Positions 1 through 12,000 of a stretch of DNA of 16,117 nt are shown one piece after another. Made by a program: the position numbers. Location: the IMG/VR virus record IMGVR_UViG_2778261278_000003, positions 1-16,117 of that record; one strand, given 5' to 3'. Source of the DNA: a virus. Its lineage: Duplodnaviria; Heunggongvirae; Uroviricota; Caudoviricetes. Within the stretch, counting starts at the first letter, position 1. Each line of letters opens with the position of its first letter.

Positions 1-3000
1 GTGGCTCGGACAACACGCCCTCTGAGCAACACCGAAGTTCTACGTGCTAAAGCGCTAGATAAGGATCTAACACTGCATGATGGTGATGGGCTTTTTCTGA
101 TAGTGAAAACAAACGGTAAAAAACTCTGGCGCTTTCGCTATCAACGACCAACTACAAAAAAAAGAACAATGATAGGGATAGGTGCTTTCCCAGCTATCTC
201 ACTTGCTGATGCTAGAAGGTTAAGGGCGAATTATCTTGCTTTGTTAGCTAATGGCCTAGATCCACAAGTTCAAGCTGAACTTATCGAAGAACAACAACAG
301 ATAGCCATAGACAGTATTTTTTCGACTGTTGCATTCAATTGGTTCCAGCTAAAAAGCAAAAGCGTTACCCCTGATTACGCTAAGGATATATGGCGCTCTC
401 TGGAAAAGGACATATTCCCAGCTATCGGGGAGCTCCCTGTCCAGCAAATCAAAGCCCGGACTCTAGTCGAAGCCCTTGAGCCAATAAAAGCACGTGGGGC
501 TCTTGAAACTGTACGTCGCCTGATACAGCGGATTAACGAGATTATGATTTATGCCGTAAATACTGGTCTGCTCGATGCAAATCCTGCATCAGGCGTCGGG
601 ATGGCCTTTGAAAAACCCAAAAAACAAAATATGCGGACGCTGAGACCTGAAGAACTGCCGGAACTAATGCGTTCTTTAGCTATGTCAAACTTATCCGTTC
701 CCACTCGCTGTCTTATAGAATGGCAACTTCTGACCCTCGTGCGTCCATCAGAGGCATCTGGTGCTCGGTGGGCTGAGCTCGATCTGGATGCAAAGCTCTG
801 GGTGATTCCAAGCGAGCGGATGAAGGCTAAGCGAGAACATATTGTTCCTTTGTCTCCTCAAGCCTTAGACATTCTTATGGTGATGAAACCAATAAGTGGG
901 CATCGGACATATATTTTTCCGAGTCGAAACGATCCCCAAAAAGCAATGAATAGCCAAACAGCAAATGCGGCATTAAAACGTATTGGATATGGACAAAAAT
1001 TGGTTGCTCATGGTTTGCGTTCTATTGCAAGTACAGCGATGAATGAGGCAGGTTTTAATTCAGATGTTATTGAAACTGCACTTTCTCATGTTGACAAAGA
1101 CGAAGTTCGGCGTGCATATAATCGCGCTTTATATCTCGAGCAACGTAAAGAGCTTTTAAATTGGTGGGGATTATTTGTCATGAACTCTAAATAAAAGCTT
1201 TTTAATCATCAAAAATTTTAAGGCTTTCATTCATGAAAGCCTTCTGTAACAATTATAGGTTCATCTAGCATATATTGTTTTGCAACATATAAAGGAAAAA
1301 AATCTGAGGTATAAAAATTAAAAATATCCCATTGGATATAACACCAAAAAAGAATAACCAAAAGCATCAATGTTATATTTGCCATGGATATATGAAAACT
1401 CCACAACAAACAAAACAAAAGAGAAAAAATAATCTCAGAGTTAATTATCTTAACTCGAAGATTAGCCTTTTTATCTGATATCTTTTTATCTATCTCCTTA
1501 ATAATAAAAAAATCATGGGCATCATTTCGTTTTAACCCCTCATATTTCTCATAAATCCTTAAAATATAGCCATCAAAATCACCAATAAAAACAAGGCGAT
1601 TGAAAACTGAAAAGTTTATTTTCTTATGACCATAATTTAAAACCAGAGAAATGATTAGGGCTTGTATTAATTGCAACACTGAAAGCCCTGACAGTACTCC
1701 CTGTTGAAAATCAAGCACATCCTTAAGGGAAGTTTGATTCATGATATTATATATATCAACATTACCTTTCTGATAAGTCAACATAAAGAAAATTACCATG
1801 AATAATATCAAAAAACGATGAAGAGGATACTTACAAGTAAGATCCTCAATATATTTCTCTTGGACTTTTTTTGCTAGTTCATCCATTAATACACCTGTAT
1901 AAAATATACATCTCCACAATTTGGATCAAAAGCTCCATATTCTATATATGGAGCACCTAAAAACACCATCTCTCTTTCATTCTGAAAATAAGGAAAAACC
2001 TCTTGAAAATCTTCTTTTGAGGCAAATCTCAGTGTACTTACCGAATTGTTAAAACTGTTTTTCATTTTAGCAGAAAGATATTGCAAATCCATCTCTGTAA
2101 CTTTCACTCGATAAATTACAGGGTCACCCAATTTCTTCCTAGTTATAACCCTATGAAAATCATTGGCTTTTGCTCTATTGAACCCAAAAACCTCTGTGCG
2201 ATCTGCTGTCAACGATATTTCTAGCGAGCTATCCCCTGAATGATGAGACCTAATAATTGCCAACATTTGATCTATCTCTCTCACAATTGCTCGGTCACCA
2301 TACCGTCGATTAACTGCTGCATCCGGATTTTCCAAAAGTTGCTGATAATCACGAGGTAAAATTTTCTGGCTAGCAATTTGTGCACGTCTAGTCTCTACAC
2401 TTTTACTAATAGTTTCAGCATTTTCAAGACCAGACTGCTGTGCTTCTTTAACTGCATTATTTAGTGCATTTGAAACCCTTTCGACTACTTTTTTTGTAAT
2501 ATCTTTCTTAGAGAAGAAGTCGATAATATATCCACCTTCTCTAGGGGGCTGTACCAACAGTTCAACATCTTTATAGTAGTCATGATGCATCTTTGCATAT
2601 TTCCAAAGATTACCATGTCTGATGTCAAGATAAGCCCGATCTAAGGCACTTTGCAAATGGCCTAGGCTTTTAGAAAGAGTTCTCAGGGATACTTGGTGAT
2701 CAGGTGCAATATCGCCATCAAAATGCAATTCAACAATCGCCACTTCACTTTGCTCCATGTGGAAAAATAAGTCGTTAATGTTCATATATTACGTTCATAT
2801 AAAGCACAGATCTACATCTTGAAAATGAATTTTAAAGCTGAATGAGATTTGTGATAATTCTAAAAGACATTTTTATGATACATCGCGCGCAGTGCTTTCC
2901 CCGCCTCGCCCGCCCGCTTTGCGGGGCGGTTTTAATGCAGTTGCACTGACACGCTCAGACCGCGCCGGGAATGGCGCGGTTTGCAGAAAATGAGGCAGGG

Positions 3001-9000: not shown

Positions 9001-12000
9001 TTCTGGCCGCACTGTTTATGGTGCTGGCAAACCGCTACGACTGGCAGCTCTTTCTGGAGGTGACCGGTCCCGGCGGCAGCGGCAAAAGTATCATGGCCGA
9101 AATCGCCACCCTGCTGGCCGGGGAGGATAACGCCACGTCGGCCACCATCGAGACGCTGGAATCCCCGCGTGAACGTGCCGCGTTAACTGGCTTCTCACTG
9201 ATACGCCTGCCGGACCAGGAAAAATGGAGCGGCGACGGAGCCGGACTCAAGGCCATCACCGGCGGCGATGCAGTGTCCGTTGACCCGAAATACCGGGATG
9301 CGTACTCCACGCACATCCCGGCGGTGATTCTGGCCGTGAACAATAACCCGATGCGCTTCACCGACCGCAGCGGCGGCGTGTCACGCCGGCGGGTGATTAT
9401 TCACTTCCCGGAACAGATAGCCCCGCAGGAGCGCGACCCGCAGCTTAAGGACAAAATCACCCGCGAGCTGGCGGTCATCGTGCGTCACCTGATGCAGAAG
9501 TTCAGCGACCCGATGCTCGCCCGGTCACTGCTTCAGTCCCAGCAGAACTCAGACGAGGCGCTGAACATCAAACGGGATGCCGACCCGACGTTTGATTTTA
9601 TCGGCTATCTGGAAACCCTGCCGCAGACCAGCGGCATGTATATGGGGAACGCCAGTATCATCCCGCGCAATTACCGAAAATACCTCTATCACGCCTATCT
9701 GGCCTACATGGAGGCAAACGGCTACCGGAATGTACTCAGTCTGAAAATGTTCGGGCTGGGGCTGCCGGTGATGCTGAAGGAATACGGACTGAATTACGAG
9801 AAGCGCCATACCAAACAGGGGATACAGACCAACCTGACGCTGAAAGAGGAAAGCTACGGCGACTGGCTGCCAAAATGTGACGACCCTGCGACAACCCGAC
9901 CCTCATGACTCACCTGACCGGCATCTGCCGGTCTTTTTTATCCCTGAATTCCCCGAAGGTGAACAATCCACTGTTCACCCTTCACCGTATATTCACCCGT
10001 TATCACACTGAAATTAAAAGAGAAAAACGAAAGGTGAACAGTGTGAACAATCAAATCAAAAAAAACTTTTTTCTCCCTGTGTGATTTTCAGTACGGGGGA
10101 TTAATCACCGGTATGAGTCACACCGGCAGAATGCCGGAGGTGAAGAATCGAATGTTCACCCTTCACCCATTATTCACCACCTATCCAACTGAAATAAAAG
10201 GAGAAAACAGAAAGGTGAACAGTGTGAACAGTTCTTTCGAAAAAAAATTTTTTTCCTGTACGATATAGCATCAATCCAAGTAAAAATGCGTTTTCATTTC
10301 ACATTAACTTACAGCCATTGGTATACGATTAGGTATACGCACAAAAACTGAATTAAACAAAATCGTTAAAAATCAAAGCGATACAATATTTATTCAAACT
10401 CCGCCAGCCCAATCATGATTGGACGGTATAAGGACAACACCAATAAAAACAGGAAGTTAGCAGTCTCAGCAGGACACCGACCAGACGGTAAAGAGACATA
10501 AAAGGATACGCAAAGGAGCCGCGGCTCCTGGTGACATGAAAGCCCACAGATGTGGGCTTTTTCGTTGATGGTCAGAACGACCAGTTCACACCAGCTACCC
10601 CGTTCCACGGGGATTCCACACCGGCACCATGGCTATACCCCACCCCAAGATGCCCGCTTAACGTACTGCTGAATGAGGCTTTAATACCTGCCTGGTATAT
10701 TCCACGTCTGCCCGACAAATCATTGACGAAATTACCGTCACTATTCACTTTCACCCGGTTATCATCGACAAATTCTTTGCGCACAGCCGCCTTCAGCCAC
10801 GGCTCAACTTCCATACCGTTCCCCAGACGCATGTTGTAACTCAGCGTTGCACCCAGTTCACGATATAAACTGCGGGTATCGACTGATTTCGATTCCATGC
10901 CATTGGATAAATGATATTCAGGGTTATCAGCGGTGAACCCCCGTTAACGATGCATACGGCGTCAGGTTCCAGTTACCATCGGTAAATCGCATCCCGGTTT
11001 CAATGTGACCGCCCAGCCCGTTGCTGCGATAACTGCCGTTGGCGGCTCCACCGCTGCCAACCGTGGAGTCGCGAGCTTCGGTACCTGCTAATACCAATAA
11101 ATTACCGCCATTTTCCAGCAACATATTGGTCGCTAAATTGCCGGAAATGGAAAAAGTGCCGTACTGGTGAGTACCGCTGATTTCAATACCGTTAGCCGTG
11201 CTCGTCTGGAGAGCGGCACCGCTGTTCTGGACGATATCTGTCGCTTTGCCATTATCGTTAACTGTCAGCGTACCGCCTTCATTGATCTTTGTTTTTATTG
11301 CCTCTCCGTTAGCTGAAACTGTTTGTATTCCGCCGTCGTTAATCGTTGTCTCATTCGCCACCCCCTCGACGATTTGTTCGCCGCCGGTGAGCGTCGTGCC
11401 TGTCGCAGTGGCTTTTGTTTTGACGATCTCCCGTCCGCCCGTATTGACCTGTGTTTTGTCAGAAGAGGTGTCTGACTCCACGGTTAACACGCCGCCATTT
11501 GCCAGCAGGATATTGTTCGCCGCACCCTGCTCGATGCTGAACGCGACGCCATCCGCGCGTGTTCCTGTGACCCGCGTCGCCCTGGTGGTTGCAACCAAAG
11601 CGCCCTGGCTACTCTGCTGTATCCCCGTTGCGCTGCCTTTCTCCCGCACATCGAGTGTGCCGCCGTCATTAAGCACCGAGTTTTCAGCCAGACCGCCCTC
11701 ATTAACTACCTGTGAACACCCATTAATAATGGAACCTTCCGCTGTCCCGTTTGCCATAATTTGTTGTAGGCCAGAGACGATATCGGTATTGATTGCCTTA
11801 CCATAATTCTGAACGGTTTGCGTGCCACCATTGATGTGTGTTTTCTCTGTTGACCCACCATCAACAATTTGTTCACCACTTTCGATATTTGCCTCAGTGG
11901 CTAATCCATATACCGTTTGCTTGCCACCTTTGATATTTGCTTTATCAGAAGTGGCACTGGCATATATTGTTTGGGTGCCAGCACTATTGAGTACAGTGCC

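Follow-up and report, generated by a model that had tools for sequence, protein, structure and literature searches.

Does a stretch of DNA that carries the genes of the satellite phage P4, in the order of P4, hold P4 itself, a decayed relative of it, or a satellite put together from several sources? The question is raised by IMG/VR virus record IMGVR_UViG_2778261278_000003, of which positions 1 to 16,117, a stretch of 16,117 nt assigned to the Caudoviricetes and hereafter called the window, were analysed in full. P4-like satellites are present in a large share of Escherichia coli genomes. Our analyses make it very probable that the region is a complete P4-like satellite prophage of about 10.6 kb, inserted in the 3' end of ssrA, the transfer-messenger RNA (tmRNA) gene of E. 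coli, and composed as a mosaic of three modules. The first, on alignment, is the P4 backbone from cos to crr, 98% identical to P4. The second, to judge from family assignment and junctions, is an IntA-family integrase with attP arms of its own, replacing int and attP of P4. The third, by position and composition, is a two-gene cassette of low guanine-plus-cytosine (GC) content, which occupies the hotspot between psu/cos and int in place of gop-beta-cII. Identity, intactness and boundaries are what the present analysis establishes; on activity, mobilisation and the function of the cargo, we infer.

The element is a satellite of a published kind with a published cargo, and the swap of integrase and the swap of cargo were both known already. 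With the cos-adjacent hotspot, integrase swapping and this exact cargo and locus all in published tables, it has little weight as a discovery; its value is that of a clean, fully intact example of the mosaic of backbone, integrase/att and cargo. It also raises small questions, namely what role is played by the widely distributed pair of an OB-fold protein and a protein with four transmembrane (TM) segments that makes up the cargo, and how far RNA immunity has diversified among P4-like satellites.

Identity and intactness of the P4 backbone

Between 2885 and 10253 the window is 98.0% identical to P4 (NC_001609 / X51522), corresponding to P4 4291-11624 plus 1-26. In megablast/blastn, window 10253 to 2911 aligns with P4 4291 to 11624 over 7,345 columns (E = 0), and the alignment crosses the cohesive end into P4 1-26 (window 2910 to 2885), while P4 27-4290 has no match in the window. 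A tblastn search with P4 proteins returned nine backbone proteins, all of full length, in P4 order and at 90-100% identity, and no frameshift interrupts a core gene across the P4 alignment. A preliminary description of this DNA, made from the sequence alone, had seen in it a P4-type satellite with P4 synteny, which the alignment, the full-length proteins and the intact iterons and cos bear out; the frameshifts or low identity in core genes that it named as signs to the contrary were looked for in the alignment, and neither was found. It had also called the element near-complete. Intact the element is, and 'near' is too cautious, for it is complete, with only attL and the int promoter outside the window.

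Three genes lie on the minus strand, each matching its P4 counterpart over the full length: psu (3075-3647; 190 aa, capsid decoration and Rho inhibitor, 99.5% identical to P4 Psu), delta (3721-4221; 166 aa, a late-gene activator of the Ogr/Delta type, 97.6%) and sid (4218-4952; 244 aa, the external scaffold that redirects helper capsid size, 98.8%). The plus strand carries vis, or orf88 (5505-5771; 88 aa, an AlpA-type regulator and excisionase, 98.9% identical to P4 ORF88), epsilon (eps, 6360-6647; 95 aa, derepressor of the helper prophage, 98.9%, full length), orf151 (6640-7095; 151 aa, 97.4%, full length), orf106 (cnr, copy-number control, DUF5375; 7231-7551, 100% identity) and the primase-helicase gene alpha (7566-9908), the 780-aa product of which is 99.4% identical to that of P4 over residues 1-776. 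The protein lengths given in the preliminary description hold for Psu, Delta, Sid, Vis and orf151; for alpha it had put about 777, and here an altered stop codon adds three C-terminal residues (777 plus 3) that P4 alpha does not have. Together with the integrase, homologues of psu, delta, sid, alpA/vis, epsilon and alpha are co-localised in P4 order, forming the core set by which P4-like satellites are defined (SatelliteFinder; Moura de Sousa & Rocha; PMC8628076).

The frame equivalent to 'ORF137' of P4, in the kil/Icd-like region (5951-6367, plus strand), is 89.9% identical to the P4 translation and overlaps the CI immunity RNA; at the same position the closest genome, NZ_CP076272, annotates a longer Icd-like open reading frame (ORF). 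A pair of single-base indels relative to P4 (-1/+1), 27 nt apart (6140-6168), lies in this frame just 3' of the CI RNA, and the frame is restored.

Sites for packaging, late transcription and replication are kept as well. At 2892-2910 on the minus strand (read 2910 to 2892) stands the exact 19-nt cohesive end of P2 and P4, GGCGAGGCGGGGAAAGCAC, and its psu-side flank has 2 mismatches to P4 in 164 nt. A box scan located two TGT-N12-ACA activator boxes (4987-5004 and 5025-5042) in the Psid region at 4987-5042, where the last 150 nt before sid contain 1 mismatch to P4, and a third box at PLL, 5' of vis (5385-5402), the spacer of which departs from P4 at three bases while the half-sites are retained. 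In P2 and P4 such boxes are established as Delta/Ogr sites. The origin ori (5122-5359) comprises six type-1 octamers (5122-5225) and three type-2 decamers (5330-5359), and these nine repeats are all identical to those annotated in P4; crr (9953-10253) is made of two 120-bp repeats (9953-10072 and 10134-10253) with 10 type-1 octamers, identical to P4 in 10 of 10 cases. With 19 of 19 iterons unchanged, the Alpha-dependent bipartite origin of a P4-like satellite is present. The statement in the preliminary description that all replication and cis elements are intact is thus upheld by the iterons, the exact cos 19-mer, the three activator boxes and the Rfam scores of the immunity region, which are at or above their gathering thresholds.

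Shared with P4, in sum, is the entire series cos-psu-delta-sid-ori-vis-CI RNA-eps-orf151-orf106-alpha-crr, with the same order, lengths, iterons and cos end. Across eight core ORFs (alpha, orf106, orf151, eps, vis, sid, delta and psu) the two differ by 81 nucleotide changes and 19 amino-acid changes. Divergence that is mostly synonymous indicates purifying selection and speaks for function still under selection, as do the compensated boxes of the immunity region.

Integrase, attachment site and boundaries

What, in that case, sets the element apart from P4? The preliminary description had counted int as part of the P4 gene order; the position holds, but the integrase/att module is not that of P4. 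The gene (1-1194, plus strand) is complete, with a GTG start at the first base of the window, and encodes a tyrosine integrase of 397 aa, which NZ_CP076272 annotates at the same full length. The protein has the Pfam domains Arm-DNA-bind_3, Phage_int_M and Phage_integrase and the motif residues R248, H337-x-x-R340, H363 and Y373; it scores 565 bits against NCBIfam PRK09692 (cutoff 434), the family to which IntA of CP4-57 in E. coli K-12 also belongs, and it is 59% identical to that IntA and 36% to P4 Int. By these measures it is a member of the IntA/CP4-57 family and not of the P4 Int lineage.

A tRNA attachment site had likewise been expected. ARAGORN finds no tRNA and no tmRNA in the window, and in NZ_CP076272 ssrA ends 183 bp 5' of int, so that by comparison with this genome the insertion target is the ssrA 3' end, the same site as that of CP4-57 in K-12. 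On the other side, homology to P4 ends at 10253, equivalent to P4 4291 and the crr start, and is followed by a 139-bp arm unrelated to P4. Within this arm, the P arm of attR, arm-type integrase sites ATTGGTATACGATTAGGTATACG (10317-10339, plus strand) match, at 22 of 23 positions, sequence that lies in the closest genome between ssrA and int (locus L002, 5929-5951; E = 2.8e-5), and inverted copies are found there as well. Inside the window alone the count of arm-type octamers is not above chance; the sites owe their significance to the 22/23 match between the attL and attR blocks.

The attR core TTCAAACTCCGCCAGC lies at 10393-10408 on the plus strand, and its last 8 bp, CCGCCAGC (10401-10408), equal the ssrA 3' end and form the right end of the element. 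The preliminary description had placed that end at 10250, which is close to where P4 homology stops and short of where the element does. Directly after CCGCCAGC begins homology to K-12 sequence past CP4-57 attR (>95%), and the same breakpoint opens homology to DNA of phage LLS downstream of an ssrA-type attP. The corresponding attL block in the closest genome is at L002 5803-5810, in ssrA, some 190-197 bp to the left of window position 1. Taken between these blocks the element is one of about 10.6 kb, spanning CCGCCAGC in ssrA to 10408. An att direct repeat, also predicted earlier, does exist in the form of this 8-bp block and of shared arm-type repeats, as in CP4-57; a longer duplication does not.

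CP4-57, the cryptic prophage of K-12, provides the nearest comparison for this second module. Both elements have the same insertion point, between ssrA and ypjA, and both have CCGCCAGC at either end, the RefSeq boundaries of CP4-57 lying on the same 8-bp block; the flank right of attR is >95% identical in the two. The PRK09692 score, the motifs and CCGCCAGC at both junctions (attL being taken from the closest genome) are together those of an ssrA integrase of the IntA/CP4-57 type. The likeness ends there: CP4-57 measures 22 kb, has arm-type repeats that differ from those described here, and is without psu, delta, sid, alpha and cos, whereas the element in the window is a true P4-type satellite. 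P4 in the strict sense was also considered as an identification and rejected, given an Int of 36% identity, no match to P4 27-4290, insertion in ssrA and not in leuX, the target of P4, and no gop-beta-cII. The attP arms and core of P4 are replaced (P4 2607-4290 is absent), a 1.7-kb two-gene cassette stands where P4 has gop-beta-cII, and at about 10.6 kb the element is smaller than P4 (11.6 kb).

Distribution of the arrangement in E. coli

Sharp breakpoints of homology at 2885 and 10253 might also be produced in assembly, by the joining of P4 sequence to an unrelated ssrA island. Nothing beyond the breakpoints speaks for such a chimera, and we regard it as vanishingly improbable, indeed refuted, since the same arrangement recurs from end to end in a complete genome: the whole window is E. 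coli chromosome and matches NZ_CP076272 over its entire length (99.2% identity), and among 5,426 complete E. coli genomes there are 113 in which at least 80% of the window is present. The modules of the mosaic differ in composition, with a GC content of 32.9% in the cargo (1195-2884), 44.3% in int and 55.5% in the backbone. Genomes that cover 89% of the window are annotated, next to this int and backbone, with genes for DUF2326, SIR2 and metallophosphoesterase proteins, which presumably fill the cargo slot.

Between the window and NZ_CP076272 there are 128 differences, nearly all of them inside the P4 backbone (2500-10250) and most dense at 5500-6500, the immunity region, and there are almost none in int, the cargo or the right flank. 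The pattern suggests that P4 backbones may have recombined within one frame of int and cargo.

RNA immunity

Is the immunity of the element that of P4? The leader (5830-5920, plus strand) contains seqA target boxes (5866-5891) and a terminator hairpin; Rfam recognises isrK at 5843-5920 with 71.3 bits (gathering 50) and the c4-a1b1 target motif at 5830-5882 with 46.7 bits, equal to gathering. The CI immunity RNA (Rfam C4) follows at 6028-6115 on the plus strand, with 76.7 bits against a gathering threshold of 45 (E = 8e-14), and its seqB boxes are TCTTCGAG (6072-6079) and TTTCCAC (6087-6093). A second target of the CI RNA, seqC, occupies 6118-6159 on the same strand, with GCGTGGAAAC at 6118 and CTCGAAGG at 6152. 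The region accordingly has the RNA immunity of a P4-like satellite, a CI RNA with seqA and seqC targets.

Its boxes, however, differ from those of P4. The seqB pair CCTGTGAA and TTCTCAC of P4 is changed in the window to TCTTCGAG and TTTCCAC, and the seqA and seqC targets are altered in step. The predicted duplex of seqB with its own targets has an energy of -24.9 kcal/mol for seqA and -32.4 kcal/mol for seqC, compared with -11.5 and -18.5 kcal/mol for the seqA and seqC targets of P4. Co-variation of the three sequences with pairing kept points to a working immunity circuit, and because seqB boxes and targets have co-varied and pairing with P4 targets is weaker, the element is predicted to be heteroimmune to P4.

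The comparison was extended to 36 P4-like elements, comprising 33 loci taken from the representative genomes of GTDB, of which there is one per species (two of these genomes gave two loci each), together with P4, CP076272 and the window. Seventeen seqB haplotypes were found among them, and almost all of the elements have the reverse complement of seqB on both sides of it, upstream and downstream, at constant distances and with 0-1 mismatch. In the window and CP076272 the lone mismatch between seqB and target was confirmed to be a G.U pair, and other single-mismatch elements with a U-initial seqB box are consistent with the same pattern; the exceptions are two loci (L031 and L042) in which the upstream, seqA match is poor. 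We predict from these haplotypes that P4-like satellites comprise many mutually heteroimmune lineages, or immunity types. A search of a limited body of literature found no relevant earlier report of covariation between seqA and seqB of P4.

The cargo cassette

The third module fills the interval from int to cos (1195-2884) and replaces the whole gop-beta-cII block. Its two genes overlap. Gene 1 (1886-2785, minus strand) encodes a soluble protein of 299 aa with a C-terminal OB-fold, and gene 2 (1227-1886, minus strand) a '4 TM' membrane protein of 219 aa, or 230 aa from an upstream TTG, in which about four hydrophobic segments can be seen. A consensus scan places a terminator-like hairpin with a 10-bp stem, as a pattern match only, between the convergent int and cargo genes (1220-1243). 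The preliminary description was right that there is no room for cII, the stop codons of int (1194) and of the cargo gene (1227) being only 32 bp apart. Its treatment of the missing cII as a peculiarity is another matter: the whole of gop-beta-cII is a documented variable hotspot, and the replacement cassette has been catalogued and cloned (PMC9122126).

The locus between psu/cos and int is known as a hotspot with >300 gene arrangements, and integrases are often exchanged among P4-like elements (PMC9122126, PMC8628076). Rousset et al. 2022 list this very cassette in Tables S1A, S1B and S2B (PMC9122126), which makes it a psu-int hotspot cassette on record. Its proteins, WP_024238668 and WP_024238669, appear there among P4 psu-int loci, on several contigs of E. 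coli of which NZ_CP024127 is one; in the summary table the pair is entered as hotspot system 30, with the number 51 and the comment "4 TM in protein 2"; and it was cloned as pFR87 "HP + 4TMs" from E. marmotae E1118, the cos-proximal junction being the same (PMC9122126). NZ_CP024127, we find, also matches the whole window. Read by eye against pFR87, protein 1 agrees at 298 of 299 residues and protein 2 is apparently identical, so between system 30/pFR87 and the present cassette there is no substantive difference. Literature searches by DUF7946 or by WP accession returned nothing, and the cassette could be traced only through its peptide sequence in supplementary tables.

Within E. coli the cargo is present in 24-25 of 5,426 genomes, always at an identity of at least 99.7%. 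The 299-aa protein has 92 unnamed homologues, which reach Pseudomonas, Xanthomonas, Shewanella and one cyanobacterium; in Xanthomonas and the cyanobacterium the protein-1 homologues occur alone. Since a homologue of the membrane protein follows the 299-aa homologue in three genera, Salmonella, Pseudomonas and Shewanella, the two proteins are by this comparison a conserved unit, and the pair, judged by where its homologues occur, travels as a mobile cassette from one hotspot to another. An AlphaFold model of the 299-aa protein (predicted local distance difference test, pLDDT, 87) resembles known structures only in the OB-fold of ~70 residues at its C-terminus. Among the residues conserved in this protein are H21, D23, R35, Y162, E170, D172 and H211.

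The settings of the pair in other genera are varied. In Salmonella (L003 6733-9520) it belongs to a P4 remnant, where it comes just past psu, and the fljB-hin locus is close by; in Pseudomonas (L006 271-1789) it is beside an FRG-domain gene; and in Shewanella (L007 8001-9415) it is directly 3' of glmS.

What might such a cassette do? Its most likely role, we suggest, is that of an anti-phage module of the abortive-infection type, which would benefit host and satellite alike. The cassettes of this hotspot are mostly defence systems, and 6 of 8 unknown P4 cassettes picked at random gave protection against phages (PMC13586616); from Salmonella to Pseudomonas and Shewanella the two genes have stayed together, in settings that are mobile or belong to islands; and a soluble sensor with a TM effector would fit a layout common in abortive infection. 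Several observations weigh on the other side. The cassette was tested against eight coliphages, and pFR87 stands in Table S2B under "additional tested systems" and is absent from the table of validated systems (PMC9122126); PADLOC-DB 2.0 yields 0 families at E <= 1 for either protein, and Pfam and NCBIfam give sub-threshold noise only. None of the systems named in the 2026 paper in Nucleic Acids Research (NAR) on unknown P4 cassettes fits this one. It is therefore quite conceivable, if somewhat short of probable, that the cargo is not anti-phage at all and is, for example, an addiction module of membrane toxin and regulator, or serves a function unrelated to phages.

Of equal standing, and put forward tentatively, is a specific form of the defence reading. 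The cassette may be a real abortive-infection system in which the 299-aa protein uses its OB-fold to sense a phage cue (single-stranded DNA, say, or a protein of the phage) and in response opens the 4-TM protein or activates it; the published panel of eight phages would then simply have included no sensitive phage. Were this true, the OB-fold and 4-TM pair would represent a widespread new defence family, extending from the Enterobacterales to Pseudomonas and Shewanella.

Mobility of the satellite

Given an intact backbone, can the element still move? By analogy with P4, the CI RNA would pair with seqA and seqC, transcripts from PLE would be terminated and the prophage would be silent. In the presence of a P2-like helper, Epsilon would derepress the helper, Delta and Ogr would cross-activate late genes and promoters, and Alpha would replicate the element from ori and crr; Sid would then force the helper capsid protein into small shells, which Psu would decorate, and the helper terminase would cut and package at cos. 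Mobilisation by a P2-like helper is on these grounds plausible.

The alternative is a fixed, cryptic prophage, intact in sequence and yet incapable of excision or packaging, whether the reason be a Vis unable to direct an IntA-type integrase, a degenerate attR or a tmRNA crippled by excision. Several features weigh in this direction and against an active satellite. The attL and attR sites are identical over 8 bp only, and the position of attL, being that seen in the 99.2%-identical genome, lies outside the window; the ssrA end on the attR side is degenerate, reading CCGCCAGC followed by CCAATCA, without a proper UCCACCA tail. Vis is of P4 type and Int of another lineage with unrelated att arms, so that excisionase and integrase may not be compatible. 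The only P2-like piece in the window is a remnant of a pinH invertase. Excision of CP4-57, moreover, is rare and damages tmRNA (PMC10107115).

Yet CP4-57 does excise, and by the same 8-bp block (PMC10107115), and neither the core genes nor the cis sites of the present element contain a single inactivating mutation. Its divergence from P4, as shown above, is mostly synonymous; and the same int and backbone accompany other genes in other strains, which implies continuing recombination and transfer, provided that those genes occupy the cargo slot, as is assumed. We accordingly consider a cryptic state unlikely, and prefer the reading of a complete satellite that a helper might mobilise.

Excision would rebuild an ssrA that ends in CCGCCAGC followed by CCAATCA (window 10401-10415; ssrA L002 5795-5817), with U357 and the normal UCCACCA tail lost, and the defective terminus predicted is GCCAGCCCAAUCA. 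Excision of CP4-57 removes the single U357 and leaves the tmRNA inactive (PMC10107115); the end predicted here would be more damaged than that. Through this damage to tmRNA, losing the satellite may carry a cost for the host and so be disfavoured.

DNA to the right of attR

The DNA right of attR is older debris. Its first part (10409-10562), which contains a terminator-like hairpin, is >95% identical to K-12 sequence past CP4-57 attR and 86% identical to the DNA just past the ssrA-type attP ('tmRNA pseudogene') of lambdoid phage LLS. Probably it is what is left of a phage that integrated at ssrA earlier and was once the source of the 3' end of that gene. By the annotation of the 99.2%-identical genome, decayed genes follow at 10566-13962, 14235-14402 and 14740-16117, comprising pieces of a ypjA/EhaD autotransporter, part of a DNA invertase gene like pinH, with 80-84% identity to invertase genes of P2 type, and a frameshifted ypjCB. 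A third degenerate copy of the ssrA 3' end, TTCAGACACCGCCAGCTCAACA, is found at 14568-14589 and is again followed by a hairpin. This copy suggests that the ypjA-pinH segment is itself the relic of a former island, one member of a tandem array at ssrA.

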